Part shown: piece by piece, positions 1,790 to 57,005 of the stretch
Position numbering within the stretch: position 1 is the stretch's first letter
Layout: every line of letters begins with the position of its first letter
Virus record (IMG/VR): IMGVR_UViG_3300049139_000178
Location: 1 to 64,000 of that record
Source of the DNA: a virus
Direction: 5' to 3' (one strand)
DNA length: 64,000 bases
Program-made: the position numbers and the translations under genes
The notes under the pieces: model-generated
What the model saw: the letters and a program-made list of their open reading frames with translations, nothing else
Told to the model about the DNA's origin: nothing
The model's database searches: none

Positions 1790-2036
1790 CGTTCTCACCG
1801 CCGTTGTTCGCAGGCGCGGCGGGGAAGACGAGCCAGTGGCCGCTCCGGTCCAAGCCGACGCGATCGCCGAACAGCGCCGTCTTGGTTTGGCTTCCGTCCT
1901 CGTAGACCATCCCGTCGGGCAGGGGCAACTCGACTCCGACCACGCGCATGTCATCGTTGAAGAGGGCCACGGCCCTCTGCTCCGTTTCCAGGATGTCCCC
2001 GAGTCGTTCGGGCGTGAGTCGCTGCATCCCCGTCAT
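1782..2036 (-). CDS. hypothetical protein
   Basis: ATGA overlap with the methyltransferase stop. Confidence 0.6.
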   Translation of the reverse strand: MTGMQRLTPERLGDILETEQRAVALFNDDMRVVGVELPLPDGMVYEDGSQTKTALFGDRVGLDRSGHWLVFPAAPANNGGENDG

Positions 2037-3004
2037 GACCCGGTCCTCACCGCCCGGAACAGAGACTCCGCGAGTTGTGTCGGGCAGGCGTTGCCGATCT
2101 GCTGCGGGATGTCCCCGCCCGACCACGGGTAATCCGCCGGGAATCCCTGGAGTCGCCCGGCCTCCGATTCGGTGAACCGGGGCAGCTCCTCGCCGTCCGG
2201 CCCGACGACCCGGTTACGGTTGATCTTCCCCGTCACGGTGAACGCGGGTTCGGTGCTCGCTCGCCGGCCGCGCTTCTTCGGGTCCCCGCCGGTGCCATAG
2301 TTCGAGATCACCGTGAACGGCTTCGGCCGATCGAGCGCCTCCCCCATGGACACCGGCGCGGGAAGGCCCTTGTCGCCGCTCACGCGGCCCCGGGACCACC
2401 GCCGGTGCGTCGGGGTTGGGAGCGCCACGGCGCCGTCCCTACGGGCCAGCAGGACCGCCCGGCGCCGGGTCTGCGGTACTCCGTACTGCTCGGAGTTCAG
2501 CACGCCACAGGCGACCGCGTACCCTTCGGCGCGCAGGATCTCTGCGTACGTCTGCCACACCGGCAGGGCGCCTTGTACCTGTTCCAGCACGACGGCCCGG
2601 TACGGACGTCCGGCGTCGGCAGCCGCGAGGATGTACCGCAGCGGCTCCAGGACGAGCAGCGAGCGCGCGTCCGTTCCGGGCGGGGTCGGCGGCAGGGTCT
2701 GACGGGCGGCCATCGCCTTGGCCTTTTGCTGAAGGTGGGCGAGGAGCAGACGACCGGCGCCCCGGCCGGCGACGGTGAACGTCTGGCACGGCGGACCCCC
2801 GGCGAGGATGTCCACCCCGTAGAAGTCAGCTGGGCCGTAGTCCCGGACGTCGCCGTGGACCGTGTCCAAACCCCTCGCCCGGCGGGTGGCCACGGCCCCG
2901 TCGTCGTACTCGACACCGACGACCGGGATGTCATCCGCCTCCGCAGCGATGTCCATACCGCCGGGTCCGGCGAACAGATCCAGGACTGTGCGGTACCCGA
3001 TCAT
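2033..3004 (-). CDS. DNA (cytosine-5)-methyltransferase
   Basis: motif I DLFAGPGG, catalytic GPPCQ, motif VI as EQV, PQTRRR, RLQGFP, QIGNA. Confidence 0.93.
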   Translation of the reverse strand: MIGYRTVLDLFAGPGGMDIAAEADDIPVVGVEYDDGAVATRRARGLDTVHGDVRDYGPADFYGVDILAGGPPCQTFTVAGRGAGRLLLAHLQQKAKAMAARQTLPPTPPGTDARSLLVLEPLRYILAAADAGRPYRAVVLEQVQGALPVWQTYAEILRAEGYAVACGVLNSEQYGVPQTRRRAVLLARRDGAVALPTPTHRRWSRGRVSGDKGLPAPVSMGEALDRPKPFTVISNYGTGGDPKKRGRRASTEPAFTVTGKINRNRVVGPDGEELPRFTESEAGRLQGFPADYPWSGGDIPQQIGNACPTQLAESLFRAVRTGS

Positions 3005-21896: not shown

Positions 21897-22153
21897 CTCA
21901 GATACTCCGAGCCGGGGCAGACGGCCCAGGTACGCGGTCCGGGACGATGGACGGCTCGGAGAATGCCGACGCCCTCCAGGACGAGCAGGTGGTCCTCCAG
22001 CCAGGGTCCCGGCCGGCCTGCGCGACTGGCGACGTCGGGGAAGTCCGAGACGGTGAACGTCTTTTGACCTCGTGCGGTCAGTTCACCGATACGGCTGCGC
22101 ACCGCATCGGCAAGGGTTGGGGGTGGTCCAGTCGTGGCTGTGGTGGTCGGCAC
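21893..22153 (-). CDS. stand-alone TraB-type winged helix protein
   Basis: GTG after GGAGGAG; aligns with the TraB C-terminus. Confidence 0.65.
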   Translation of the reverse strand: MPTTTATTGPPPTLADAVRSRIGELTARGQKTFTVSDFPDVASRAGRPGPWLEDHLLVLEGVGILRAVHRPGPRTWAVCPGSEYLR

Positions 22154-22172
22154 GACTCCTCCGTTTCCGTGT

Positions 22173-22814
22173 TCAGATATCCGCTCGGACGAGCCCCCGC
22201 CCGGCGGTGTTTCCACGGTGCACGTGCCAGACCCACGTCCGAGCGTCCAGATGCTCGAACGTGGCCCCTGCGTCAAGCAGGCGCACCAGATAGTCCTCGT
22301 CTTCGCCACGGTAGCGGCGGCCTAGGCCATCTGTCGTCGTTTCCTGGCCAGGACGGAACCCTCCGATGGTTCGTACCAGCTCAGTCCGTACAAGGTGGGT
22401 CATCGGGATGAATGACCCGAATCGGCGCAGATGCGCCTCTTGCTCAGGCCCAAAGCGGACACCCCAGGGAAGCACCCACTGCCCCTGTACGGACACGGCC
22501 GTGGGATCCTGACCCCCGCGCACCACTGGTGCCGGGTACACCAGGTCGGGCCGTTCCGGGGACTGCTCCATCACGCGCATGCATGCCATGAGGTGGTTGG
22601 GCTTGATTTCGTCGTCATCGTCGAGCCACGCCACGACGTCCGTGGTGACCCGCTCCAGGGCTCGGTTACGGGCCTGGTCCGCCCCGGTGCGCAGGGAATC
22701 GCGTTCGACGACGACCTGGTCCGGCCGGCGGCGTTGTGCGCGCACGGACACCAGGGCGCGCTCCAGCATCGCCTCCCGGCCCGGGATGGTCGGGATGACG
22801 ACGGCTACGGTCAT
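22173..22814 (-). CDS. glycosyltransferase family 2 (paralogue of 11237-11818)
   Basis: VIPTIPGR, ARNRAL, LDDDD, LVRTEL, GGFRP, FEHL, HxxNTxGR. Confidence 0.88.
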   Translation of the reverse strand: MTVAVVIPTIPGREAMLERALVSVRAQRRRPDQVVVERDSLRTGADQARNRALERVTTDVVAWLDDDDEIKPNHLMACMRVMEQSPERPDLVYPAPVVRGGQDPTAVSVQGQWVLPWGVRFGPEQEAHLRRFGSFIPMTHLVRTELVRTIGGFRPGQETTTDGLGRRYRGEDEDYLVRLLDAGATFEHLDARTWVWHVHRGNTAGRGLVRADI

Positions 22815-22855
22815 GCGGGGCACGACAGTGTCTCCTCTCCGTCGGCCGGCGGGCT

Positions 22856-23155
22856 CTAGCACATCGCGTCCCCGGCGTCGTAGGGCGGCATGGGCTCTGG
22901 GACCCGCACCCCGGCCAGGGCCTGCGCAGCCCTCTGAACCGCCGGTGCTGTACGGGTCAGGCTCTCGCGGAACCGCTGGAAGACCAACGCGGTCTCGTTG
23001 AGCCGCGCGCCCAGCAACTCGGCGTCCGCAGCGATATGTACGGCTGCGGTGCCGTCCGGGTTCGACGGGTCAACGCCGACAACCACGGAGCCCGCACTTT
23101 CGGCGTCTGCGCCGGGTGCGGGCTCCGTGGCGGCGGGTGTGCGGTCCGATGGCAT
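22856..23155 (-). CDS. hypothetical protein
   Basis: TGATG coupling to the HTH gene. Confidence 0.55.
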   Translation of the reverse strand: MPSDRTPAATEPAPGADAESAGSVVVGVDPSNPDGTAAVHIAADAELLGARLNETALVFQRFRESLTRTAPAVQRAAQALAGVRVPEPMPPYDAGDAMC

Positions 23156-38107: not shown

Positions 38108-38632
38108 ATGAGTGCTGACACCTACGACCTCGGCCACATCGCGAGCGGTATCGACCGCATCGAGCGGGCACGGAAGACCATCGACCGCCGGAAGTACACC
38201 GACAAGGTGGGCAACGACTGGACCGCCGGTATCGAGGGCATGAAGCACCCGAAGGTCGTCGGCGTCTACGGCGAGGCGGTGCTGGACTACAGCGACGATG
38301 GTGCCCGGTTCCAGGTGAACGGCTACACCCATGGCGGGCATCACCTCTATCGCCGGGAGTTCGCATCGCTGGACGCGGCCCTGCGCAACGGCTCTCGTGT
38401 GGCTCACGACGGCCCGACGCCTGCCGAGCGCGTGGAGGCGTGGAACCTGACGTATCCCGAGGGCCGGGCCGTGCGCTACTGGACCGGGGCGCGCGAGGGC
38501 GCTGGCGCGACGGGGCGCACTCGCAGCGCGGCGTGGGTCGCCGAGGGCCACACCGCCGTCGTCCAGGTCACCGGTCACGGTGCCTGGATCGCCCTGACCC
38601 ACGTCGACCCGATCCCGGAGACGGAGGGCTGA
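38108..38632 (+). CDS. hypothetical protein
   Basis: GAGGA RBS; C-terminal WN-x2-YP-x-G...TRS-x-AW motif. Confidence 0.75.
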   Translation: MSADTYDLGHIASGIDRIERARKTIDRRKYTDKVGNDWTAGIEGMKHPKVVGVYGEAVLDYSDDGARFQVNGYTHGGHHLYRREFASLDAALRNGSRVAHDGPTPAERVEAWNLTYPEGRAVRYWTGAREGAGATGRTRSAAWVAEGHTAVVQVTGHGAWIALTHVDPIPETEG

Positions 38633-38635
38633 GCG

Positions 38636-38833
38636 GTGACCGCGTTCGTGCGCGCCTTCGTCTTCTGCGACGACTGCGGTCAACCCCTCGACACCGACAC
38701 CGTGCCGGCCGCCAGCAGCATCAGCGAGGCCCTGCGCGACGCCAAGCGGCGGGGCTGGGTCCGAAAGCGCGGGCGTTGCGACCTCTGCGGGGGTTGCAAG
38801 GTCAAGACCAAGGAAGCGAGGAACGAGGAATGA
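38636..38833 (+). CDS. small zinc-finger protein
   Basis: CDDC...GW...DLCGGC. Confidence 0.65.
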   Translation: MTAFVRAFVFCDDCGQPLDTDTVPAASSISEALRDAKRRGWVRKRGRCDLCGGCKVKTKEARNEE

Positions 38834-39138
38834 GCGACGACAAGGGGCACGGCTACACGTGGGCGGACCTGCGCGAGCGGCCGGCCGACGAACTGGGTGT
38901 CGGGGATACGTGGGTTAACCCGGATGCGTTCACGGTGTACCGGGTCGACAAGGACGGCAACGTGTACCCCGGTCTGTCTCCGCTGGACGGCTACGCGTGG
39001 ACCATCACGGCTCGCGACGGGAACACCGTCACGGCCCGGCGCCATGACAGGCGACAGGCGGAGACCGCGACGATCCCCGAGGGGCAGCGCGTCCTCGCCG
39101 TCGTGCGCACGACCGACGAAACGGGGGCCGGGGTATGA
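38830..39138 (+). CDS. hypothetical protein
   Basis: GACCAAGGA and GAGGA before ATG. Confidence 0.65.
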   Translation: MSDDKGHGYTWADLRERPADELGVGDTWVNPDAFTVYRVDKDGNVYPGLSPLDGYAWTITARDGNTVTARRHDRRQAETATIPEGQRVLAVVRTTDETGAGV

Positions 39139-39569
39139 GCGTCCACTTGGAGTGCGACCGCTGCGGGTTCCAGGAGCAGACCGGCAGCGTGATGCTGTTC
39201 GCCGGACTCACTGGCCCCGGGATCCCGACGGCCCGCCCCGAGCTACCGGTCGGCTGGACACGGCCCCGGCTCCCCACCGAGGACGACGAGCTGCGCGACC
39301 AGGAGCTGTGCCCCGGGTGCAAGGCGGACCTGTTCGCGTTCATGCGCGGCGTCGCCGTCCCGGGCCGGACGGTTCCGGTGGAGGTTTGTCAGGGCTGCGG
39401 GCACCACGCGGGCGAGGGGTGCGGCTGTCCGCCGAACCGGATCTGCCCCGGCTGCGGGCACCTGCGTCACGCGGACCCGTGCCCCGACCACGTCTCCGAG
39501 GTCGGCCCGTGCGGCTGCAAGGAACTGACGACCCGCAAGCAGATGAAGGAGCTGGGGATCTATGACTGA
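39135..39569 (+). CDS. Cys-rich zinc-finger protein
   Basis: multiple CxxC/CGH motifs; ATGA coupling. Confidence 0.7.
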   Translation: MSVHLECDRCGFQEQTGSVMLFAGLTGPGIPTARPELPVGWTRPRLPTEDDELRDQELCPGCKADLFAFMRGVAVPGRTVPVEVCQGCGHHAGEGCGCPPNRICPGCGHLRHADPCPDHVSEVGPCGCKELTTRKQMKELGIYD

Positions 39570-39978
39570 ACCGAGGCGCACGCGGCTGGTCGTGGACATC
39601 GAGTGGCGCGGCCACCCCAACGCCGAGCCCGGGGACGAGTACTACGCGGACGCCGAGCTGCCCGAGGTGGCGACGCGGTGGATCACAGATGCGTTCTACG
39701 ACCGCGACGACTCTCCTCAGGTCACCGTGACCGACGTCGGCGAACCCGGACCCGACGCTGATGGGCCCGGGACCGAGGACGTCATCTATGAAGTCGTCGG
39801 TGGATGGGGTGTGAGCAGCGCGGACAGTGCAGAGGACGCTCGCCGGAAGGTCGCGGAGGCGTTGCGGGACTACCCGCACAGCGGGGCACGGGCTCAACAG
39901 CGTGTGTATCGCGACTGGCCTGACGGCTCCGAGTACTACGGCCCGTGGACGGACTTGCCGGAGGAGACTGATGACTGA
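39562..39978 (+). CDS. hypothetical acidic protein
   Basis: overlaps the upstream stop; hairpin terminator at about 40000-40036. Confidence 0.7.
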   Translation: MTEPRRTRLVVDIEWRGHPNAEPGDEYYADAELPEVATRWITDAFYDRDDSPQVTVTDVGEPGPDADGPGTEDVIYEVVGGWGVSSADSAEDARRKVAEALRDYPHSGARAQQRVYRDWPDGSEYYGPWTDLPEETDD

Positions 39979-40129
39979 CTGATCGTCCGACGAATCACCG
40001 AGCCCCGGAGCCCTACGGCCCGGGGCTTCGTCGTGCACCGCTCGCCCCGCTCACGGGGCCGCCGGAACGATCATGGGCTGCTCCGGTCTTAACATCGCCC
40101 GCGTCCGTCGACCAGGCGAAGGGGCCGCG

Positions 40130-40966
40130 ATGACCACGACCATCGGAACCGAACAGGTCTCGCTGGAAGACCTCACCCCGTTCCCCGGCAACGCGCGCCG
40201 GGGCAACGTGGAGACGATCCTGGACAGCCTCCGGGCGAACGGCCAGTACAAGCCGCTCACCGTTCGCCGGGCCGGCGAGACGCTGACGATCCTCGCCGGG
40301 AATCACACGTACGTAGCGCTGCTGCGGCACGAGGAGTCCGGCCGCGAAGCCTGCCAGGACTGGGAGCTGGCCAACGACCGGCCGTGCCAGCTCTGCATCA
40401 ACGTCGACCGCGACGACCCGACTGCGCTCTCCCATCTCATCGAGTGCGACGACGACACCGCCAAGCGCATCAACCTGGTGGACAACAAATCGGCGGACGA
40501 CGGCACCTACGACGACGAGGCCGTGGCCGCCATCCTCGGCTCGCTGGAGGGCGGTGTCGTCGGCACCGGCTTCACAGACGACGAGGCCGACTCTCTGCTG
40601 GCCCGGTTCGAGGAGGAGGAGGTCGTCGCGTACACCGCGCCGGCCGTCGCCGAGTACAACGACTCCCCGGAGGAACGCCAGGCCCGCATCGACTCGCACG
40701 GCGGGGAGAACAGCCGTACCTACGAGTCCCGGGGCGTGCGGGACATCTTCCTCGCCATGCCCAACGCCGAGGCCGACGAGCTGGGCCGCTGCATCATGGC
40801 GCTGCGCGAGCACTTCGGCGCCATGAGCCAGAGCGAGATCGTGCTGCGGGCGGCCCGGGTGGCCGTGGCGGTGATGGACGGTGCCGGCTCGGGCCTGACC
40901 CTCGCGGAGTGCCTCAGCCGGGGCGAGGAGATCTACGCCCCGGAGGAGACCGAGGACGCGACGTGA
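40130..40966 (+). CDS. ParB/Srx N-terminal domain protein
   Basis: LTPFPGNAR, SLRANGQYKPL, ILAGNHT-x2-AL, DN. Confidence 0.85.
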   Translation: MTTTIGTEQVSLEDLTPFPGNARRGNVETILDSLRANGQYKPLTVRRAGETLTILAGNHTYVALLRHEESGREACQDWELANDRPCQLCINVDRDDPTALSHLIECDDDTAKRINLVDNKSADDGTYDDEAVAAILGSLEGGVVGTGFTDDEADSLLARFEEEEVVAYTAPAVAEYNDSPEERQARIDSHGGENSRTYESRGVRDIFLAMPNAEADELGRCIMALREHFGAMSQSEIVLRAARVAVAVMDGAGSGLTLAECLSRGEEIYAPEETEDAT

Positions 40967-42051
40967 CCACCCCTCCCGAGCTGACCGCCGGCGTGGACTT
41001 CCGGCAGTCCTCCCTCCGGCGCGAGGTGTTCCTGCGCTTTTACGAGTGGTCGGTGCGGCACAAGTCGTTCCCCGGCGGGGTGCATTACGTGCTGCCGCAC
41101 CTGGCCGACGTACTCGGATGGGACACGGAGCAGCGGTTCTGGGCCGCTTTCCTCAACGCCAATACGCAGAACCCCGTCACCACGCTGCTGCTCATGCAGG
41201 CCGCCCCGCACCCCGCCGACACCTCCGGGGCGCTGGCGTTCTGGCAGCGTCACTACCGCGAGCTGGAGTGGGACACCGACCGCCGGTACCACAAGGCCCG
41301 GTTCGGCGACGCGGTGGACGGCTATCTGCACCTCGTCGGCTCCGGCCCGGCGGCGCAGACCCGCTACTTCCGCCGGCCGCACGAGTGGACGGCGTGGTGG
41401 GAGGCTGCGTCGGCCGTGCCGACCATGGGGCGCCTGTCCACCTGGAGCTATTTGGAGTACCTGCGGATCCTGGAGTGCGGGGCCCCGGACGCCGACACGC
41501 TCATGCTCACCGACATCCCCGGCTCCCGCAGTCACCGCAACGGCCTCGCCCTGGTGGCCGGACACGACGAGTGGATCTCAGACAAGCAGCTCGGCCGGGC
41601 CCCGGTCAGCTACACCCCGGACATCCTGAGCGAGCTGGCCTCCGTCGGCTACGGCTTGCTGCGCGAGGCGGCCCGCCGCCTGCCCGGTGACCGCACGGTC
41701 GGCTACCTGTCGCTGGAGTCGGCTCTGTGCACGTACAAGAGCTGGCACAAGCCGAACCGCAGGTACCCCGGCGTCTACAACGACATGCTGCACGACCGGC
41801 TCGTGCGGGCTGAGAACCGCTTCGGCCGCCGCTTCGGCGCCATCTGGGACGCCCGGCGCGAGGCCCTGCCCGCCAGGTTGCGGCTGGAGGACAACCCCGG
41901 CGATCCGGGCTGCGTGCCGGTCAAACAGAACTGGTACCTGACCACCGGCCAGGTCATCGGCATGGCGGAAGAGTGGCCGTGCTTCAGCAACGACTTCGAC
42001 CGCATGGTGCGCGAGGGCGTGTTCGGCGTGAGGGAGCGGGCGTGGCTGTGA
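40963..42051 (+). CDS. amino acid:DNA transferase (aGPT-Pplase2 clade, HhH-glycosylase fold)
   Basis: RREVFLRFY, NANTQNP, WDTDRRYHK, GRLSTWSYLE, SHRNGL, LESALCTYKS, RYPGVY; sits with a kinase and a PLP gene. Confidence 0.82.
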   Translation: MTTPPELTAGVDFRQSSLRREVFLRFYEWSVRHKSFPGGVHYVLPHLADVLGWDTEQRFWAAFLNANTQNPVTTLLLMQAAPHPADTSGALAFWQRHYRELEWDTDRRYHKARFGDAVDGYLHLVGSGPAAQTRYFRRPHEWTAWWEAASAVPTMGRLSTWSYLEYLRILECGAPDADTLMLTDIPGSRSHRNGLALVAGHDEWISDKQLGRAPVSYTPDILSELASVGYGLLREAARRLPGDRTVGYLSLESALCTYKSWHKPNRRYPGVYNDMLHDRLVRAENRFGRRFGAIWDARREALPARLRLEDNPGDPGCVPVKQNWYLTTGQVIGMAEEWPCFSNDFDRMVREGVFGVRERAWL

Positions 42052-42776
42052 ACAAAGCGATCATCTGCGAGCGGTGGGAGGTGCCACTGGCCGAGCAGAA
42101 CGACGGCAACAGGTGGTTCGCCGACTGGGTCCGCCGCGACCCCAAACAGGCCAGCGCCCACGTCACCGCCGGGTACTGCGCCTACCGCGCGCTCAGCCTC
42201 GTCTACACCCCCGACGAACTGCGCACGGCGGAGGAGTTCTTCGGCGGGCTGGGCTGCCAGTCGCTCATCATCAGCGACCGGTGGCAGCCGGAGCAGCACA
42301 CCATCCACGAGCAGCACCCGGCCGCCGTGGAGCACCTGCGCACGCTGATGCCGTGGGCTGAGGTGTGGCGCTCCGACTCCTACGCCGTGGAGCCGGCCGG
42401 GGCGGATCTGGTCGGGCTGGACTTCGGAGACCTGACGGCGTGGCGGCTGCGCGAGGGCCAGGCCCACCGGCGGCTACTCGATGCGGTGTTCACCCGCCGG
42501 CCGAAGGCTGTCGTACTCACGGACATCGCCGGGCCCCGGCTGCACCTGCACCGGCAGCGCTACGGCGAAGTCCTCGGCGCGGCCAGCCTGCCCGGCTACC
42601 GCACGTACCTGGAGGCGCTGGTGCGCTGGTTCCAGACCACCTACGACTACGCGCTGGTGCGCGGCTACTGGCAGAGCTGGTCCACCGTGCTCGCGCTCGT
42701 ACCGGCGGAGAACTTCATCGGGCTGGGGTCGCTGGAGCCCGTGCCCGACCGGCCCCGAGGAATCGAGATCCTGTGA
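42048..42776 (+). CDS. divergent Rossmann/SAM-methyltransferase-like protein
   Basis: EEFFGGLGCQS resembles SAM-binding motif I; DS..., LVGLDF; translationally coupled. Confidence 0.5.
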   Translation: MNKAIICERWEVPLAEQNDGNRWFADWVRRDPKQASAHVTAGYCAYRALSLVYTPDELRTAEEFFGGLGCQSLIISDRWQPEQHTIHEQHPAAVEHLRTLMPWAEVWRSDSYAVEPAGADLVGLDFGDLTAWRLREGQAHRRLLDAVFTRRPKAVVLTDIAGPRLHLHRQRYGEVLGAASLPGYRTYLEALVRWFQTTYDYALVRGYWQSWSTVLALVPAENFIGLGSLEPVPDRPRGIEIL

Positions 42777-43645
42777 TGGACCTGGACACCTGGCTCAGCC
42801 CTGTAGAGAACCGGGACGGCCGCCTCTACAAGCGCGAAGACCTCGCCGCGCTGCCGGTCGGCGTCAACGGCTCCAAGTTGCGCGCCTGCGAGCACCTGAT
42901 AGGCCGGGCGGCACGCGCCGGCGCCAAGCGCGTCATCTCCGCAGCCTCGGTGCTCTCCCCGCAGAGCGCCATGGCGGCCGTCCTGGCGCAGCGCCACGGG
43001 CTGGGTTGCACGGTCGTCGTCGGCGGCACGAAGCCCAGCACGGCCATCCGCCACCCGTCGGTGCGCATGGCCGTGGACCACGGCGCCTCGTTGGAGTTCG
43101 CGGCCGTCGGCTACAACCCGGCGCTTCAGTCCTACGCGCGCAAGCTGGCCGCGCTCGACCCCGACGCCTACTGGCTCCAGTACGGCATCACCACCCCGCC
43201 GTCCGCCGGCCGCGAGGAGCTGCGCGCCTTTCACAACGTCGCCGCCCGGCAGACGGCCAACCTGCCGCGCGGGGTGGAGACGCTCGTCGTGCCGTTCGGC
43301 TCGGGCAACACGGCCGCCGGGGTGCTCATGGGCCTGGCGCAGCGAGCCCCGGCGGACCGTCCGGAGCGCATTGTACTCGTCGGCATCGGCCCCGACCGGC
43401 GGACCTGGCTCGCGGACCGCTTCGCCGCGATGGGCCTGCGCCTCCCGGCCTACGAGCACCTGGACCTGCACGGCTCCGGGTATGCCGCCTACGGCGACAA
43501 GATGCCCGGCACCGCCGACGGTATCCGACTGCACCCCACCTACGAGGGCAAGATCGTGCGCTACCTGAACGAGCACCGGCCCGACTGGTGGACCCGGCGC
43601 GACGGCACCACCTGCCTGTGGATCGTGGGAGGGCCGATCTCGTGA
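42776..43645 (+). CDS. PLP-dependent fold type II enzyme (ACC deaminase/cysteine desulfhydrase-like), DNA-modification associated
   Basis: YKREDL, NGSKLR (PLP Lys), SPQ, FGSGNT, PTYEGK. Confidence 0.88.
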   Translation: MDLDTWLSPVENRDGRLYKREDLAALPVGVNGSKLRACEHLIGRAARAGAKRVISAASVLSPQSAMAAVLAQRHGLGCTVVVGGTKPSTAIRHPSVRMAVDHGASLEFAAVGYNPALQSYARKLAALDPDAYWLQYGITTPPSAGREELRAFHNVAARQTANLPRGVETLVVPFGSGNTAAGVLMGLAQRAPADRPERIVLVGIGPDRRTWLADRFAAMGLRLPAYEHLDLHGSGYAAYGDKMPGTADGIRLHPTYEGKIVRYLNEHRPDWWTRRDGTTCLWIVGGPIS

Positions 43646-44217
43646 TCAGTGAGCTGCTGTACCTCGTCGGCCCGCCCGGCGCCGGGAAGTCCACCCTCGC
43701 GCGGGAACTGCGCACCGGCTGGGACACGGAGGTCGACCGGCACCACCCTGTCCCGCATACCCGGCTCACCCACCCGGCGACCGGCCGGACCGTCGGTCTG
43801 GAGCTGGGGGTGCCCCGTCCGGAGTTCCCCGGCACCGACGCCCTGGCCATGGACATAGGGCTCCGGGCCCTCCAGTTCCTCTCCTCCAGCTACCTGCACT
43901 TCGCGCTCGGCGAGGGCGCCCGGCTGGCGACGAAGCCGTTCCTCGCCGGTCTCGCGCAGCAGGGAATTGCCGTGACCGTGGTGGAGCTGATGGCACCGCA
44001 GGCCCTGCTCGACGAGCGGTGGCGCGAGCGCGGAGCGAAGCAGAACCCGTCCTGGCGCAAGGGCGCGGCCACCCGGGCCCGCCGCATAGCCGAGTGGGCC
44101 GCCGGGGCGCCCGGCGTCCGGCTGCGGTGCATCGATGTGGGGGAGTACGGCCTGTCGGAGATGGCGGACGAGGTGCGCGACGCCTTCCCGCCGATAGCCC
44201 TGGGGGTGAACCGGTGA
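43642..44217 (+). CDS. P-loop 5-hydroxymethylpyrimidine DNA kinase
   Basis: GPPGAGKST, FPGTDAL, GEGARL, RG-x2-Q-x3-W-x-KG-x2-TR. Confidence 0.8.
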   Translation: MISELLYLVGPPGAGKSTLARELRTGWDTEVDRHHPVPHTRLTHPATGRTVGLELGVPRPEFPGTDALAMDIGLRALQFLSSSYLHFALGEGARLATKPFLAGLAQQGIAVTVVELMAPQALLDERWRERGAKQNPSWRKGAATRARRIAEWAAGAPGVRLRCIDVGEYGLSEMADEVRDAFPPIALGVNR

Positions 44218-45104
44218 TCTCGATACGCCTGCGCTCGCGCATCGGCAAACAGGAGCTGGACGAGAAGGTCGGCAAGGTCATCGGCGACGACGCGTACAAC
44301 GTGCTGCTGACGGGTCCGAGCAGGGTGTTCATGCCCAACGGGCAGCCGCTGTGCGTCTACCTGCCCGGAGCGATGCGCGACGTCGTCACCGACGAGCAGT
44401 ACGAGACCTTGCACTCGCTGCACAGCACCAAGACCGGTAACAGGGGCCTGGCCGGGGGAGCCCCGACGTGGACCACAGGCAAGCAGTGGCGAGCGTTCCC
44501 GGTGTCGTCCGCCGTACTGGGCTCCCTGGACCCCAAGCTGCCGAGAAATCCCGCCTGTCGCCTGACGGCCTGGACTGGCAAAAACCTCCCCCGGTGGGAG
44601 GTGCTGCACCCGGCGCTTCAGGCCGTCGCGGACAACATGCGGCAGCACGTCCCCGACAGGTATGCGGCGCAGATGGAAGAGATCGACCAGACGCATCCGG
44701 ATTGGGTGGTACCCGGCACCCCGTTCACGACGATCACGGTCAACAACACGTACCCGACCGGTGTGCACACCGATAAGGGTGACCTGGACAAGGGCTTCAG
44801 CACGATCTTCTGCGTGCGTCGGGGCGAGTACACCGGCGGCCGGTTCGTCTTCCCGGAGTTCCGCGTCGCCGTCGACCTCCAGGACGGCGACCTGATCCTG
44901 ATGGACGCCCACCAGTGGCACGGCAATACGGCCCTGGTCTGCGCGTGCGGGGAGAAGCGGACGGCCTACTGCGAGGAGTGCGGCGCCGAGCGGATCTCAG
45001 TCGTCTCGTACATGCGCACTGCGATGACCAAGTGCGGTAGCGAGGCTGAGGAGATCGACCGGGCGCGGGAGTACCGCGAGCGCACCAAGGGCGTCGTCCG
45101 TTAA
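44214..45104 (+). CDS. TET/JBP-family 2OG-Fe(II) dioxygenase
   Basis: FTTITVN, HTD (HxD), WHGNT, RISVVSYMR; CACG...CEEC zinc insert. Confidence 0.85.
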   Translation: MISIRLRSRIGKQELDEKVGKVIGDDAYNVLLTGPSRVFMPNGQPLCVYLPGAMRDVVTDEQYETLHSLHSTKTGNRGLAGGAPTWTTGKQWRAFPVSSAVLGSLDPKLPRNPACRLTAWTGKNLPRWEVLHPALQAVADNMRQHVPDRYAAQMEEIDQTHPDWVVPGTPFTTITVNNTYPTGVHTDKGDLDKGFSTIFCVRRGEYTGGRFVFPEFRVAVDLQDGDLILMDAHQWHGNTALVCACGEKRTAYCEECGAERISVVSYMRTAMTKCGSEAEEIDRAREYRERTKGVVR

Positions 45105-45126
45105 CTGTTAGGGAGGCTAAGGAGCT

Positions 45127-45759
45127 ATGGCGAAGGGTGATCCGCCCAACCAACAGCCCAGCCACCGGGCGATGGTGGCGCAGCGGCGCGCACGGGCCAT
45201 CGAGCTGAAGAACCGGGGCTTGTCCTGGCAGCAAGTGGCCGAGCAGATGGTTCCGGCCTATCTGGACGGCGACGGCAACCCGTCGGCTGCCGCCGCGTGC
45301 GTGGACGTCTCCCGCGCGCTGAAGCAGGCCAACAAGGAACTTTCGATGGGGCTGGAGGAGTACCGCGAGGCGGCGCGCATGCGGCTGGACGGGCTGCGCC
45401 GGCAGGTGTTCGCAGTCCTCGCCCGGCCGCACTACGTACTGCACGCGGGGCAAATCGTCCGCGACGACGAAGGCAATCCTCTGCGGGACGACAGCGTGGT
45501 GCTCGCGTGCGTCGACCGGCTGCAACGCATCGAAGAGCGCCAGGCGAAGATCGACGGCACGGACGCGTCGGAGAAGTTGACCATCGCCTTGGACCGCAGG
45601 GTCGACGAGGAAACGACGGTGGTGGTAGAAGCGATCCTGGCCGGCGCCAACGCGGTCGAGTTGGAGCCCGCGCAGCGACAGCGGATGCTGGAGGCCGCTG
45701 GTGCGCACCTGCGTGTCCTGGAGGGCGAGGTCGTCGGCGAGGCGGAGGAGCCGGAGTGA
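45127..45759 (+). CDS. putative terminase small subunit (HTH)
   Basis: N-terminal HTH (AIEL...GLSWQQVAEQM), RLD, ERQAKIDG-x-D. Confidence 0.55.
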   Translation: MAKGDPPNQQPSHRAMVAQRRARAIELKNRGLSWQQVAEQMVPAYLDGDGNPSAAAACVDVSRALKQANKELSMGLEEYREAARMRLDGLRRQVFAVLARPHYVLHAGQIVRDDEGNPLRDDSVVLACVDRLQRIEERQAKIDGTDASEKLTIALDRRVDEETTVVVEAILAGANAVELEPAQRQRMLEAAGAHLRVLEGEVVGEAEEPE

Positions 45760-45938
45760 ACAGCGGAGAGCAAACGAGCCCCCATCCGTTCGCGCGGGCG
45801 CGCTGGCGGTGGTGGCTCTGCGTTCACTGCTACGCCCCGAGAAGTCTGCACCCCCGGCGCGGCTGGGTCCGGGCGCGTCCGCTCGGGGACCGCAGGTATC
45901 TGTCGGCCGACGCCCCGCACTTCCGCGAAGGCTGGTAG
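45756..45938 (+). CDS. small hypothetical protein
   Basis: GTGA overlap; H...CVHC...HP. Confidence 0.45.
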   Translation: MNSGEQTSPHPFARARWRWWLCVHCYAPRSLHPRRGWVRARPLGDRRYLSADAPHFREGW

Positions 45939-45994
45939 GCGCTCCGGGAGTTCGGTGGCATCATCCGGACCCACCCACGACACAGGAGGCAGAC

Positions 45995-46249
45995 GTGCCC
46001 CTCCCCACTGACGGCTTCACCACCGCCAGCGTCACCTACTCCCTCGCCACCAGCGACAACCTGCCGGTGAACATCACCGTGCGGACGGACAACGCAGGGC
46101 GGCGCGAGGCGTTCGAGCTGTTCCAGCCGTACCTGGAGGCGGCCCTGAACCAGCTCCGCAACGACTACGCCAACGGCACTGAGCAGGAGGTGCTCTACAT
46201 CGAGCGTGCCTACGGCGCGGCCATGCAGGAACAACTGACGAGCGAGTAG
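45995..46249 (+). CDS. hypothetical protein
   Basis: CAGGAGG RBS before GTG. Confidence 0.6.
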   Translation: MPLPTDGFTTASVTYSLATSDNLPVNITVRTDNAGRREAFELFQPYLEAALNQLRNDYANGTEQEVLYIERAYGAAMQEQLTSE

Positions 46250-46415
46250 CCGGCCGGCCACCTGGGTACGACACCTGGGACGGCGGCCCGTACACACCGC
46301 CTCAGCTCTGGAACCGCCCGGCGCCGCACCGGGCGGTTCCTGCGTTTCCCAGGTTGTTCGGCGATTCTCCGGTCCCTGGCTACCATCCGGCCACGACCAG
46401 TGACCAAGGAGACGA

Positions 46416-47507
46416 GTGGCCATGCGTGTTCTGCTCACCGGTGCGGCGGGGTTCGTCGGCAGCCACGTCCTGCGCCATCTGCTGACGCATACGGACTGGG
46501 ACGTCGTCTGCCCGGTCAGCTTCCACCACAAGGGCCTGCCGGCGCGCATCGCCTCAGCCGTCTGCGACACCGACTGGTCCCACCGAGTGGACGTCGTGCA
46601 CTGGGATATGCGGTCCCCGGCCGACCCGCTGACGCTGCACCAGCTCGACGGCTGCGACGTCATCATGAACGTCGCCAGCGAGTCGCACGTCGACCGCTCT
46701 ATCACTCACCCCGTCGACTTCGTGCAGAACAACGTCGCGTTGATGCTGAACGTCCTGGAGGTCGCGCGGGCCATCGAGCCCCGACTGCTCCTCCAGATGT
46801 CCACCGACGAAGTCTACGGCCCGGCCTACGGCGACCACCGGCACCGCGAGTGGGAACCGGCCGTGCCGTCGAATCCGTACTCGGCGAGCAAGGCGGCGCA
46901 GGAGTCCATCGCCATCAGCTACTGGCGGACCTACGGCGTGCCGCTCGTCATCACCAACACCATGAACATCATCGGGGAGATGCAGGACGGCGAGAAGTTT
47001 CTGCCAAGAATCATCAAGAGTCTGCGCGCGGGTCGGCCCGTGCCAGTGCACACCGCACCCGACGGCACCCCCGGCTCCCGCTTCTACCTGCACGCGCGCA
47101 ACCTCGCCGACGCCTGGCTGTTCCTGACGCGGCGGTATACCGACGAGGGCGACATCGAGGTGACCACGCTGGGTGGTGAGGTCATCCGCATCCCCACGGG
47201 CCCCGCGCAGTACAGCCACGGCGGAACCCGGCGGCCCGACAGGTTCAACATCGTCGGCGAGCGCGAGGTGAACAACGCCGAGCTGGTCGGAATGGTTGGG
47301 CAGCTCATGGGGCTGGGGCCGTGCGAGGTGGACCAGTTGATCCAGCCGGTGTCCTTCCACGCCTCACGGCCGGGTCACGACCTGCGATACGCCCTGGACG
47401 GGTCCAAGATGGCTCGCCTCGGCTGGGAGCCCCCGGTGCCGCTGGAGAAGTCCATCGAAACCACCGTGCGCTGGTCGCTCGACAACCCGGCCTGGCTGGA
47501 GCTGTAG
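46416..47507 (+). CDS. dTDP-glucose 4,6-dehydratase-like (RmlB family)
   Basis: TGAAGFVG, ASESHVDRSI, STDEVYG, YSASK, EKFLP, RPGHDLRYA. Confidence 0.92.
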   Translation: MAMRVLLTGAAGFVGSHVLRHLLTHTDWDVVCPVSFHHKGLPARIASAVCDTDWSHRVDVVHWDMRSPADPLTLHQLDGCDVIMNVASESHVDRSITHPVDFVQNNVALMLNVLEVARAIEPRLLLQMSTDEVYGPAYGDHRHREWEPAVPSNPYSASKAAQESIAISYWRTYGVPLVITNTMNIIGEMQDGEKFLPRIIKSLRAGRPVPVHTAPDGTPGSRFYLHARNLADAWLFLTRRYTDEGDIEVTTLGGEVIRIPTGPAQYSHGGTRRPDRFNIVGEREVNNAELVGMVGQLMGLGPCEVDQLIQPVSFHASRPGHDLRYALDGSKMARLGWEPPVPLEKSIETTVRWSLDNPAWLEL

Positions 47508-47515
47508 GGCGCCGG

Positions 47516-47555
47516 ATGGTTTAACAAAACCATCATCCGGGGATTTAACTAAATG
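47516..47555. promoter_or_regulatory. tandem pair of degenerate palindromic boxes upstream of the LuxR-type gene
   Basis: ATGGTTTAACAAAACCAT and GGATTTAACTAAATGA. Confidence 0.6.
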
Positions 47556-47668
47556 AAAGAGTCCTGGCAGACCCGGTGATCTGACCCGGATCGTCGCCAG
47601 TCGACAAGGGCCCCGGGTCAGTGGACGTGACCCGGGGCCCACCCCAATCTACGGAGGGAGCGACCCAC

Positions 47669-49937: not shown

Positions 49938-50192
49938 ATGGACAGCATGACGGGCTACATCGACACCTTGTGCGGCCACATCGTGGATCTTCACGATAGG
50001 TATGAGTTGTCGCCTGCGTTCCACTCACGTACTGGGACGGACCTTCAGATCCGGTTGCAGTTCCTCGGGGAACTTACCGGGCTGCGTCGTGCCCTTGCCA
50101 TCGCGCTGGGGGAAGACCCGGAGCAGGAGTGCGACATCGAGGGCGCGGCGGACACGTACGTCCGCGAGTGGCGTGAGAAGCACAAGCGCTGA
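49938..50192 (+). CDS. hypothetical protein
   Basis: own box at about 49872-49910; hairpin downstream. Confidence 0.65.
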   Translation: MDSMTGYIDTLCGHIVDLHDRYELSPAFHSRTGTDLQIRLQFLGELTGLRRALAIALGEDPEQECDIEGAADTYVREWREKHKR

Positions 50193-50247
50193 TACCGGAC
50201 CCTCACCCACTAGAACCCCGGCGCCCTTCCGGTCCGGGGCTCCGCCG

Positions 50248-51654
50248 ATGCTCCGGAAAGCAACGGCCGCAGCTCCACCGACAATGACCCCCATGGTGGA
50301 CCGGAAGCTGAGCCGCGCGGCGGCCGAACGGCTGCTGATGCACGCGCGCACGCTGACCGAGCCGCGCTGGACTCCGCTGCCCCACCAGGTCCCGCCCGAG
50401 GGCGACTGGTACGGCTGGTTGCTGCTCGCGGGCCGTGGCGCCGGCAAGACAGACGCCTGCGCGCGGTACGTCCACGAGCACGTCATGGGCCCGCCGTGCC
50501 TACCGGGTCCCACCCCGCACTGGATCGGCATCATCGCGCCCACCCTCGGCGACGCGGCCACGTCCTGCTACGCCGGTCCGTCCGGACTCCGGGTGCACAG
50601 CCCCGAGGCTCGGATGATGACCGTCCAGGGCGGCACGGTCATCCGCTGGCCCAACGGCTCCGAGGCGAAGCTGTTCGGCGCCGACAGCCCCGGCAGCGTC
50701 GAGCGCCTGCGGTCCGGCGGTAACCGCTGCCTCTCGTGGTTGGAAGAGCTGGCGGCCTGGCGCTACCTGGACGACACCTGGGACCAAATGCGCTTCGGCC
50801 TGCGCACTGGTCCCCGGCCGCACTGGGTGGCGTCCACCACGCCGAAGCCCCGGGCGCTGATCAAGAAACTCGCGTCCGGCGGAGTCGAGAACGTGGTGCG
50901 CACCCGGGCGTCCATGTACGACAACCCCCACCTGCCCGAGGACATCAAGGCCGCGCTGGAGGACGCATACGGCAGTACGCAGATCGGCCGCCAGGAGCTG
51001 CACGCCGAGATCATCGACCAGGACGAGAACGCGCTGTGGACTCGCGACACGATCGACGCCCACCGACTGCGCCCGGCGGACCTCCCGGACCTCGCGCGGA
51101 TCTCCGTCGGCGTAGACCCCTCCGGCGGCCGGGGCGAGCAGGGCATCGTCGTCGTGGGCAAGGCTATGCAGGAGCACGTCCGAACCGACGGCCGCCCGGC
51201 GCAGCTCGCCCACGGCTACGTCCTCGCCGACCGGACGTGCCACCTTTCCCCGGACGGCTGGGGCCGGCGTGCGGTTCAGGCGGCCGTCGACTACGACGCG
51301 GACGATATCTGCTGTGAAGTGAATTTTGGCGGGGACATGGCCGTCAACACGATCCGGGCGGCGGCCGACGCGATGGGCGTGCGCATCCCGATCCGCACCG
51401 TGCGCGCCACGCGGGGGAAGAAGGTGCGCGCGGAGCCGGTGTCGGCCCTGTCCGAGCAGGGCCGCTGGCACATGGTGGGGGAGTTCCCCGAGCTGGAGGA
51501 CCAGATGTGCACCTGGTACGACGAGCTGGACTGGAGCCCCGACCGGCTGGACGCGATGGTGTGGCCGGCCTGGCACCAGCGGATCGTGAAACCGACAATG
51601 ACCGGCACGACGTCGTCCAAGGGCCTGGCCACCGCTGCGCGGACCATCGGATGA
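50248..51654 (+). CDS. terL: terminase large subunit
   Basis: PLPHQ, AGRGAGKT, WLEE, STTPK, DNPHL, VGVDPS, EVNFGG, SPDRLDA; start uncertain. Confidence 0.92.
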   Translation: MLRKATAAAPPTMTPMVDRKLSRAAAERLLMHARTLTEPRWTPLPHQVPPEGDWYGWLLLAGRGAGKTDACARYVHEHVMGPPCLPGPTPHWIGIIAPTLGDAATSCYAGPSGLRVHSPEARMMTVQGGTVIRWPNGSEAKLFGADSPGSVERLRSGGNRCLSWLEELAAWRYLDDTWDQMRFGLRTGPRPHWVASTTPKPRALIKKLASGGVENVVRTRASMYDNPHLPEDIKAALEDAYGSTQIGRQELHAEIIDQDENALWTRDTIDAHRLRPADLPDLARISVGVDPSGGRGEQGIVVVGKAMQEHVRTDGRPAQLAHGYVLADRTCHLSPDGWGRRAVQAAVDYDADDICCEVNFGGDMAVNTIRAAADAMGVRIPIRTVRATRGKKVRAEPVSALSEQGRWHMVGEFPELEDQMCTWYDELDWSPDRLDAMVWPAWHQRIVKPTMTGTTSSKGLATAARTIG

Positions 51655-55875: not shown

Positions 55876-55920
55876 CACGACGAAGCCCCGGAGTCACGGG
55901 ACTCCGGGGCTTCGTCGTGT
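55875..55920. terminator. bidirectional hairpin terminator
   Basis: ACACGACGAAGCCCCGGAGTC-loop-GACTCCGGGGCTTCGTCGTGT between convergent genes. Confidence 0.85.
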
Positions 55921-57005
55921 CACAGGAACCGGTCGACCAGGCCCTCATACACCGCCACGGCCGCCGCCGCGTGCGTGCGCTTGAGCGCCTCGTCGTCCCG
56001 GCGCCGGATGTACCGCATGGTCGTCGCCACCTGGCTGTGGTCGGCGAACCGTCGGATGTCGTCGGGCTTCACACCCTGGTCGTACATGTGGGTGAGCTTG
56101 CTCGCCCGCAGGACGTGTGGGGTGAGGTCCCGGCCGGGCAGTACGCCGGCCGCGCGGCCCAGGCGGTTCAGCAGCCGGTCCACCGCGTGCCGGTCCATCG
56201 GCCGATCGTCGTCATCGAGCAGCAGCGGCCCGGAGGTCCGGCCCTGCCAGCACACGGCCCCGAGTTCGCACAGCTTCGGAGGCAGGGTGAACTTCCGGCC
56301 CTTGCCGCCCTTGCGGGTCAGGTCCAGTTTGCACTCCCCGCCGGACGGCTTCATGTGCTGCATCCCGGCCGCGCAGCACTCCGAGACGCGGCCGGCCAGC
56401 GTGTAGATGAGCACCGGCACGAGGGCCTGCCGGGGCGTGGCCGCCTGCTCCACCACGGCCTGGAACTCAGGCACTTCGAGAATCGGCGTCATGGCCGTCT
56501 CGTCGTGCGGGTCGATCACCGGCCGGTCGTACCGGGTGATGGGGTTGATGATCTCCAGCCGGGTGCGGAACTTGGTGTACTCGATCAGCGAAGTCAGCGA
56601 CGACGCCAGGCGGTTGACCCGGCGGGGCCCGAGGCCGATGTCCGTTGTCCAGGCCCGCCAGGCCGGGATGACGTCGGAGGTGATCGCCCCGAGGTAGAAG
56701 GGCTCGGTGCCGACCAGCTCCCGAGCGGCCCTCGCCCAGTGGCGGACGTCGTCGGCGTACTCGCGCCGGGTGCCGTCGCTGGTGAGCCGCTCGGAGTTCA
56801 GCCACCCCACCACGTGCTCGAACGTCTCCGGCGCGCACAGCTCGTGCAGGAGGTCCAGCCGGTGGACGCGCGGTCCGAGCCGGCGGTTCTTTGGGTCGCG
56901 CGGGGCGACCGTGCCCAGTTTCTCGCGCAGGCCCAGCATGGTGCGCAGCGCCACGTTGCCGTCGGCCGAGATCGTGTCGGCCCCTGCCGCCGTCATGATC
57001 GTCAT
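55920..57005 (-). CDS. tyrosine recombinase (XerC/D-like)
   Basis: R (GRVSE), K (RKGGK), HVLR, H (ADH), Y (TMRY). Confidence 0.92.
   Translation of the reverse strand: MTIMTAAGADTISADGNVALRTMLGLREKLGTVAPRDPKNRRLGPRVHRLDLLHELCAPETFEHVVGWLNSERLTSDGTRREYADDVRHWARAARELVGTEPFYLGAITSDVIPAWRAWTTDIGLGPRRVNRLASSLTSLIEYTKFRTRLEIINPITRYDRPVIDPHDETAMTPILEVPEFQAVVEQAATPRQALVPVLIYTLAGRVSECCAAGMQHMKPSGGECKLDLTRKGGKGRKFTLPPKLCELGAVCWQGRTSGPLLLDDDDRPMDRHAVDRLLNRLGRAAGVLPGRDLTPHVLRASKLTHMYDQGVKPDDIRRFADHSQVATTMRYIRRRDDEALKRTHAAAAVAVYEGLVDRFL

Follow-up and report, generated by a model that had tools for sequence, protein, structure and literature searches.

A six-gene operon predicted to hypermodify thymidine in replicated DNA on a temperate Streptomyces phage or linear phage-plasmid

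Here we describe a gene cluster on a 64,000-nucleotide stretch of viral DNA (positions 1 to 64,000 of IMG/VR virus record IMGVR_UViG_3300049139_000178; hereafter, the window), which we propose to be an operon for the modification of thymidine in DNA. Combining a third-position GC (GC3) frame plot with candidate start codons, we mapped six consecutive plus-strand genes at 40130-45104, in a window whose G+C content is 66-72% when read in 2-kb steps. The features at the locus are as follows.

40003..40030, plus strand: GC-rich hairpin, after the stop (39978) of the preceding gene
40130..40966, plus strand: ParB-like protein, 278 amino acids (PHROG 723, E 7.6e-39)
40963..42051, plus strand: amino acid:DNA transferase (AADT, formerly aGPT-Pplase2), 362 amino acids (ADDT PF18724, E 3e-14)
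42048..42776, plus strand: g3, methyltransferase-like protein, 242 amino acids (fold from its AlphaFold2, AF2, model)
42773..43645, plus strand: pyridoxal 5'-phosphate (PLP)-dependent enzyme, 290 amino acids (PALP PF00291, E 2.5e-13)
43642..44217, plus strand: P-loop 5-hydroxymethyluracil DNA kinase (5-HMUDK), 191 amino acids (Ploopntkinase3 PF18751, E 1.2e-26)
44214..45104, plus strand: TET/JBP dioxygenase (5mYOX; TET below), 296 amino acids (Tet_JBP PF12851, E 3.6e-20)
45127..45759, plus strand: g7, 210 amino acids (weak N-terminal HTH_23 match, E 0.005, below the Pfam cut-off)

All five junctions within the operon are GTGA, with each GTG start overlapping the preceding TGA stop. At the g3/PLP junction the letters are GTGATG, and either start is possible. 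An earlier note on this DNA, made from its letters without database searches, had described six translationally coupled genes, and the five junctions confirm it. However, the order given in its title was not the physical one, which is ParB-AADT-g3-PLP-kinase-TET. The components that it named are present, with PF18724, PF00291, PF18751, PF12851 and PHROG 723 matches and intact catalytic residues, and the profile searches that it suggested for aGPT-Pplase2, P-loop kinase and Tet_JBP returned E-values of 3e-14, 1.2e-26 and 3.6e-20.

The ParB start at 40130 is preceded by a GAAGGGG ribosome-binding site and agrees with the annotated start of its homologue on pS1D4-14.2, a 98.8-kb linear plasmid of Streptomyces sp. 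S1D4-14; an alternative ATG at 40073 would give 297 amino acids. The hairpin at 40003-40030 was read directly from the sequence and lacks a T tail, and for that reason the consensus terminator scan did not call it. It probably ends the upstream transcription unit, with the operon starting afresh ~100 bp later. A scan of 38600-47600 for sigma-70 consensus promoters found none, which is weakly informative for an actinobacterial element of 69% GC. From the hairpin and the ribosome-binding site of ParB, the operon looks like a transcription unit of its own. Downstream, g7 starts 22 bp past TET behind a GGGAGG ribosome-binding site and is probably co-transcribed with the operon. Since pS1D4-14.2 has g7 but not the cassette, g7 may belong to the backbone.

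We are fairly confident that these genes form a self-contained operon for fully post-replicative thymidine hypermodification, carried by a ~95-kb temperate Streptomyces phage or linear phage-plasmid. The proposal builds on direct observations –gene order and coupling, family membership, intact catalytic motifs, the absence of a hydroxymethylase, and neighbourhood statistics. In the predicted pathway, the TET/JBP-type dioxygenase, activated by ParB, would hydroxylate thymine in DNA to 5-hydroxymethyluracil (5hmU), and the P-loop kinase would phosphorylate the hydroxymethyl group. Cys256 of the AADT would then attack C6, the phosphate would be expelled and an amino acid added, most likely serine through its hydroxyl, as in Salmonella phage ViI. 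The PLP enzyme would decarboxylate the bound amino acid to a 5-(2-aminoethoxy)methyl-uracil-type base, and g3 would add at least one methyl group, most plausibly on the free amine. DNA modified in this way should resist host restriction enzymes.

For the first step, TET keeps H185 and D187 (the HxD motif), H233, H236 and R260 invariant in 34 homologues, and it is predicted from its sequence to convert thymine to 5hmU in DNA. In agreement with the earlier note, tblastn detected no thymidylate-synthase homologue in the window, and the PF00303 profile gave none in a complete 95.7-kb relative (G001), while 10 of 14 control genomes were positive. TET homologues number 1,522 at E <= 1e-5. To describe their neighbourhoods, we surveyed 89 loci with TET relatives of 46-85% identity, from 80 viral contigs and nine actinobacterial genomes. 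Their flanks were scored by iterated profile searches seeded with the window proteins and counted by domain envelopes. ParB was adjacent at 81 loci, and the kinase (68), the AADT (61), g7 downstream of TET (55), the PLP enzyme (31) and g3 (5) followed; a C5-methyltransferase lay within 7 kb at one locus, and a ThyA homologue at none. The commonest architecture was ParB-AADT-PLP-kinase-TET and then g7. The partners of the TET clade are ParB, kinase and AADT rather than C5-methyltransferases. Both this context and the missing hydroxymethylase support the claim of the earlier note that the hydroxymethyl handle is installed on DNA.

Two other features of TET were observed. Four invariant cysteines (C243, C245, C253, and C256; CxC...CxxC, window 44940-44981) lie between the distal iron-binding histidine and the 2-oxoglutarate-binding arginine, in an insert that looks zinc-binding. 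After the invariant C274, the tail holds 22 conserved residues, which may correspond to the extension past the last conserved cysteine in ParB-dependent 5mYOX enzymes. Among cultured phages, tblastn retrieved only distant TET relatives, in Pelagibacter, Nonlabens and Caulobacter phages (27-37% identity).

A second source of the hydroxymethyl group has to be weighed, since the window contains an intact gene that the earlier note overlooked.

2033-3004, minus strand: C5-cytosine DNA methyltransferase (PF00145, E 5e-30; motifs FAGPGG, PPCQ, and QTRRR)

This enzyme could write 5-methylcytosine (5mC), which TET would turn into 5-hydroxymethylcytosine (5hmC), and the kinase, transferase and PLP enzyme would then build a hypermodified cytosine. 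In phages, 5mC dioxygenases are known to act in concert with methyltransferases (PMC8256090), and thymine dioxygenases can oxidise 5mC as well when assayed in vitro (PMC13229309). The relative G001 also has an intact C5-methyltransferase. Nevertheless, we consider this route very improbable. The gene is the nearest C5-methyltransferase to the operon and yet lies 37 kb away. Its counterpart at the same G001 locus is only 33% identical, against 84% for TET, so the two did not co-evolve, and 2033-3004 looks like a variable methyltransferase slot. The C5-methyltransferase or glycosyltransferase partners that adjoin dioxygenases of the phage 5mC type were found neither in nor next to the operon, and across the survey a nearby C5-methyltransferase was seen at one of 89 loci, against 81 of 89 for ParB. 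Moreover, 5hmU is the base on which enzymes of the kinase, AADT and PLP families have been characterised (PMC8989533). In other viral genomes, the AADT-g3-PLP-kinase set stands beside a thymidylate-synthase-like gene instead of TET. One of these homologues has Asn at what we take to be the position that decides between uracil and cytosine (N177 in E. coli ThyA, D179 in T4 gp42), and such an Asn-type partner would also speak against cytosine as the substrate. Thus, the mechanism of the earlier note, with the hydroxymethyl handle installed on DNA, is supported, and the overlooked methyltransferase leaves a weak rival in the 5mC route.

The second protein of the first step would be ParB. The earlier note had listed it in the operon, correctly, and had not recognised its role as a probable activator of the dioxygenase. 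Its AF2 model (mean confidence, pLDDT, of 90.6; lower at 161-210) consists of a ParB/Srx nucleotide-binding domain (1-125), a helix pair (129-160), a linker (161-210) and a two-helix C-terminal domain (212-251), without a helix-turn-helix DNA-binding domain. The best matches of the model in the PDB are the CTP-binding ParBs of B. subtilis, M. xanthus, and C. crescentus. The ParBs known to activate dioxygenases have the same architecture and are structurally nearest to those of M. xanthus and C. crescentus; in these activators both domains are needed, and activation is partly pair-specific (PMC13229309). By analogy, the window ParB is predicted to activate the adjacent dioxygenase.

The C-terminal domain has a history of its own. 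The ParB of pS1D4-14.2 is 66% identical to the window ParB over residues 1-185, followed by a short and unrelated C-terminus, and the recombination breakpoint between the two elements falls inside the parB gene. In contrast, the TET-linked gp1 of mycobacteriophage Prince aligns through most of the C-terminal domain, up to residue 239 of 278. A C-terminus that is unrelated where the cassette is missing and aligned where TET is present indicates that this domain is inherited together with the dioxygenase cassette. Such an inheritance fits the published need for both domains and the pair-specificity. Separately, a helical insertion of ~24 residues with cysteines (C..C..CxxC; residues ~62-91, window 40310-40400) was seen in the nucleotide-binding domain of the window ParB and its closest relatives, and it is absent from other TET-linked ParBs.

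For the following steps, the kinase conserves its Walker A motif GPPGAGKS (G10...G15-K16). In the AADT, E252 and C256, with conservation of at least 90% among 64 homologues, correspond to the Glu/Cys pair shown to be essential in these clade 2 aGPT-Pplases (PMC8989533). Against the serine transferase ViI gp247, the AADT is 24.7% identical over 291 amino acids (E 3e-17), whereas the glycine transferase M6 gp51 gives a local match of only 55 amino acids (E 0.015). The PLP enzyme is of fold type II, in the ACC-deaminase/Trp-synthase-beta superfamily. Among 35 homologues, conservation reaches at least 90% at K35 (NGSKLR), the candidate Schiff-base lysine, and at many further positions. It is predicted from its sequence to decarboxylate the DNA-bound amino acid: ViI gp226, which decarboxylates O-seryl-thymidine, matches it with 30% identity in 339 aligned columns (E 2e-44), and M6 gp52 matches it with E 1e-3. 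The glycine route needs a radical-SAM (S-adenosylmethionine) isomerase before decarboxylation (PMC8989533), and no sequence like the isomerase M6 gp53 was found in the window. Since both enzymes are closer to those of ViI than to those of M6 and the isomerase is missing, serine is our best guess for the amino acid, and the product would be O-seryl-thymidine decarboxylated to a 5-(2-aminoethoxy)methyl-uracil-type base.

The donor may also be another amino acid, and the PLP enzyme may catalyse, for example, an elimination or a replacement instead of a decarboxylation, which would leave a base other than aminoethoxymethyl-uracil. We regard this as unlikely. In its favour, the identity to ViI gp247 and gp226 is just 25-30%, the nearest curated families of the PLP enzyme are of ACC deaminase, D-cysteine desulfhydrase and sulfo-lyase types (all far below their cut-offs), and AADTs are known to use glycine, serine, and putrescine (PMC8989533). 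However, a decarboxylase needs a free alpha-amine, the reason why the M6 glycine route requires the isomerase that is absent here, and the full-length match to a proven decarboxylase is far stronger than the match to M6 gp52. Moreover, a sister element with a glycine-type transferase, described below, pairs it with a flavin adenine dinucleotide (FAD) oxidoreductase and not with a PLP enzyme. We therefore keep serine as the preferred donor.

The third gene of the operon, g3, is the least familiar. It had no match in Pfam, PHROG or NCBIfam, a profile search of PDB sequences gave only chance-level matches (nothing below E 0.1), and tblastn found no match in 50,697 cultured-phage records. Its 141 homologues are all unnamed, and a protein atlas returned only unnamed viral clusters. 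The AF2 model (pLDDT 94.7) has a class I SAM-methyltransferase fold, in line with the 'MTase-like' label that the earlier note had given it despite the missing family match. Foldseek matches lie at E ~1e-8 and at 3e-9 and below. In a VIA search, Trm1 came first (Z 15.6, 213 residues aligned), followed by PrmA and TrmM (Z of at least 14) and by RsmD-like, Trm5, TYW2 and HemK-type enzymes; most of these methylate amines on nucleic acids or proteins. Conserved motifs follow the strands of the fold –FGGxG (65-69) after strand 1, E87 after strand 2, D110 after strand 3, and D125-F-G-D128 after strand 4– and they sit where the SAM-binding and catalytic motifs lie. D125-F-G-D128 presumably resembles the DPFG motif of Trm1, which we take as a lead only. 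A role of g3 as a C5-cytosine methyltransferase feeding TET was considered and rejected: PCQ, ENV and QxRxR motifs are missing from it, and the structures nearest to it are those of amine methyltransferases.

In the lineage of the window, g3 occupies the exact junction of AADT and PLP and overlaps each of them by GTGA. Five viral contigs (three distinct sequences; g3 identity 44-47%) show the AADT-g3-PLP triad again, and where g3 lies elsewhere in the genome, all three searched genomes of at least 71% completeness still have an AADT. In searches of g3-bearing genomes for the other components, a thymidylate-synthase homologue and a kinase were found in five of five and a PLP enzyme (50-52% identical) in four of five, the miss being a 56%-complete record; TET was found in none of the five genomes searched for it. 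The thymidylate-synthase homologues of g3-bearing genomes (L007 4435-5847; G002, G004, G005, G007, and G008) were observed to have unusually long frames of 470-680 amino acids, with a C-terminal part outside the PF00303 match. By the 89-locus tally, the PLP enzyme often occurs without g3, and g3 appears as an optional tailoring step that extends the transferase-plus-decarboxylase route. From its modelled fold, g3 may N-methylate the side-chain amine. The decarboxylase needs a primary amine, so amine methylation would have to come after decarboxylation.

There is a minor but real chance that g3 stands outside the pathway, either as an independent DNA methyltransferase (e.g., N6-adenine or N4-cytosine) or as a non-catalytic fold protein that came into the operon by chance, and the rest of the pathway would then hold up to the decarboxylated amine. 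Its closest folds are indeed nucleic-acid methyltransferases that act on base amines (Trm1, TrmM, RsmD-like), it is found at only five of 89 TET loci, and in several viral genomes it is separated from the transferase and lies with the primase/helicase, nuclease and polymerase genes of the replication module. On the other side, all four g3-bearing viral genomes that have an estimated completeness of at least 71% and were searched for the three partners (G002, G004, G005, and G007) have an AADT or operon partners, a PLP homologue of 50-52% identity and a kinase; the exact insertion with overlaps on both sides and the recurring triad argue in the same direction. We thus favour g3 as a tailoring enzyme of the pathway. 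Going further, and tentatively, g3 could be the founder of an undescribed family of DNA-side-chain N-methyltransferases that makes a mono-, di- or trimethylated (choline-like) base unseen in any DNA, and the cassette-specific C-terminal domain of ParB could confine thymine oxidation to the phage-plasmid's own DNA in a living host; we hold this combined idea as possible and rather doubtful.

Several points weigh against the pathway as proposed. The chemistry is deduced from genes at each step, as is serine as the donor and, most of all, the function of g3. TET was assigned to the ParB-dependent thymine dioxygenases by its gene context, and a direct pairwise comparison with the mycobacteriophage 'thymidine hydroxylase' gave only 28% identity. 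With an intact C5-methyltransferase on the element and the activity of phage thymine dioxygenases on 5mC, some 5hmC-derived products are weakly possible. The inference of serine depends on ViI enzymes that are 25-30% identical, and fold type II PLP enzymes catalyse several reaction types. For g3, the proposed role comes from fold, motifs and co-occurrence, and in some genomes the gene sits in the replication module, kilobases from the transferase.

Regarding the element that carries the operon, synteny with the linear plasmid pS1D4-14.2 extends over ~15.8 to 59.5 kb of the window. The window also matches G001 almost end to end in a circularly permuted way; this IMG/VR viral genome of 95.7 kb has terminal repeats and is 100% complete by CheckV. 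Window 386-22818 corresponds to G001 74177-95297 and window 23064-64000 to G001 238-42170, and from this permutation the window (~22818-23064) spans what are the terminal repeats of G001. Besides a fused primase-polymerase, the window encodes the following.

50002-51654: large terminase
55920-57005, minus strand: tyrosine integrase

Together with the plasmid synteny and the viral relative, these genes point to a temperate phage or a linear phage-plasmid of Streptomyces, with a size of ~95 kb. The integrase and the syntenic plasmid fit the temperate or plasmid lifestyle that the earlier note had suggested. Two further regions of the window were observed. A NAD-dependent sugar epimerase/dehydratase lies at 46416-47507 on the plus strand (PF01370, E 2e-43), 1.3 kb downstream of the operon, and ~22121-22870 is homologous to a family 2 glycosyltransferase of pS1D4-14.2, as part of the shared backbone.

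In pS1D4-14.2, the stretch that corresponds to 40590-45136 of the window is replaced by ~1 kb of unrelated sequence, and thus the cassette is accessory. There, ParB is followed by two small genes of 181 and 89 amino acids without Pfam match (L002 28890-30375). Sister elements that have the cassette resemble the window in ParB (83-94% identity), kinase (81-92%), TET (80-85%) and g7 (91-97%), and they vary in the slot between ParB and kinase. The slot holds a serine-type AADT, g3 and PLP in the window and four close relatives, and a serine-type AADT and PLP without g3 in two others (L032 and L033). In Streptomyces africanus NRRL B-24243, it holds an M6 gp51-like (glycine-type) AADT and a DAO-family FAD oxidoreductase.

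L028/L114 4682-6432 (92.7-kb contig): slot of S. africanus NRRL B-24243, PaMx11-like, with FAD oxidoreductase (PF01266, E 7e-12); ParB, kinase, TET and g7 near-identical

Lee et al. proposed a "modular gene pool" for hypermodification, and the sister series of the window is a concrete illustration of it. Another cassette layout was observed in a cultured phage, Mycobacterium phage AlanGrant (L027 1-3152): in its gp1 of 479 amino acids, an N-terminus resembling ParB (34% identity in 166 aligned residues) is fused to a C-terminal part without assignment. Next come a PLP enzyme, with 47% identity to that of the window, and a kinase.

The type of pathway is already known: it was predicted in 2021, and its first step was demonstrated in 2025-26. 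What is new here is the unannotated methyltransferase-fold tailoring enzyme, the swapping of the slot among Streptomyces phage-plasmids and the cassette-linked C-terminus of ParB. We found no report in the literature of a whole pathway, from thymine to final base, measured for any TET-started cluster. The operon is a complete and compact six-gene version with relatives in culturable Streptomyces strains, in which the whole pathway could be measured. As for g3, which has neither an annotated family nor a cultured-phage homologue, it may produce a new DNA base, and the sister elements offer a natural comparison series that shows how phages shuffle base chemistry. These findings also raise the question of how a resident phage-plasmid avoids modifying the host chromosome.

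Compared with known systems, Salmonella phage ViI (PMC5889632, PMC8989533) shares the 5hmU DNA kinase, the serine-type Cys/Glu AADT and the fold type II PLP decarboxylase, and its enzymes are the closest characterised ones to the AADT and PLP proteins of the window. However, in ViI a dUMP hydroxymethylase supplies 5-hydroxymethyldeoxyuridine (5hmdU) ahead of replication, and the genes are dispersed, whereas in the window a DNA dioxygenase and ParB replace the hydroxymethylase, and all genes stand in one coupled operon with an added methyltransferase-fold gene. The Pseudomonas phages M6 and PaMx11 (glycine route) have the same logic of kinase and AADT. Unlike them, the window has neither a radical-SAM isomerase nor a flavin lyase, and its AADT barely matches M6 gp51; the sister element of S. 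africanus NRRL B-24243 is the one that resembles PaMx11, with its M6 gp51-like transferase and FAD oxidoreductase.

Among cultured actinobacterial phages, the cluster B mycobacteriophages (Prince gp1-gp4, Zemanar) and Rhodococcus phage Tonitrus (PMC11955845) carry genes for ParB, a TET-like 'thymidine hydroxylase', AADT and kinase beside the terminase, where the genome ends. Their AADT is 55-57% identical to that of the window and their kinase 42%, the value for Prince gp4. We found no chemical data on these phages in the literature. Prince differs from the window in its order (ParB-TET-AADT-kinase), in its TET, with only 28% identity, and in lacking the PLP enzyme and g3.

Finally, the replacement of dUMP hydroxymethylase by TET was not as novel as the earlier note had presented it. 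Lee et al. described in 2021 viral contigs with TET_JBP in place of the hydroxymethylase beside hypermodification genes (PMC8989533), and O'Toole et al. (PNAS 2026) showed, in vivo and in vitro, phage post-replicative thymine dioxygenases that depend on ParB and are linked to kinases and AADTs (PMC13229309; preprint 10.1101/2025.08.14.668559). The 5mYOX clade C1 clusters of that work resemble the window in combining TET/JBP with a ParB that has nucleotide-binding and C-terminal domains and no DNA-binding domain, and in having no adjacent C5-methyltransferase. In their case only the oxidation step was characterised, with metavirome enzymes expressed in E. coli. To these clusters, likened to it by gene context, the window adds a PLP enzyme and g3, and the element that carries them is a temperate Streptomyces phage-plasmid whose relatives are found in cultured strains.

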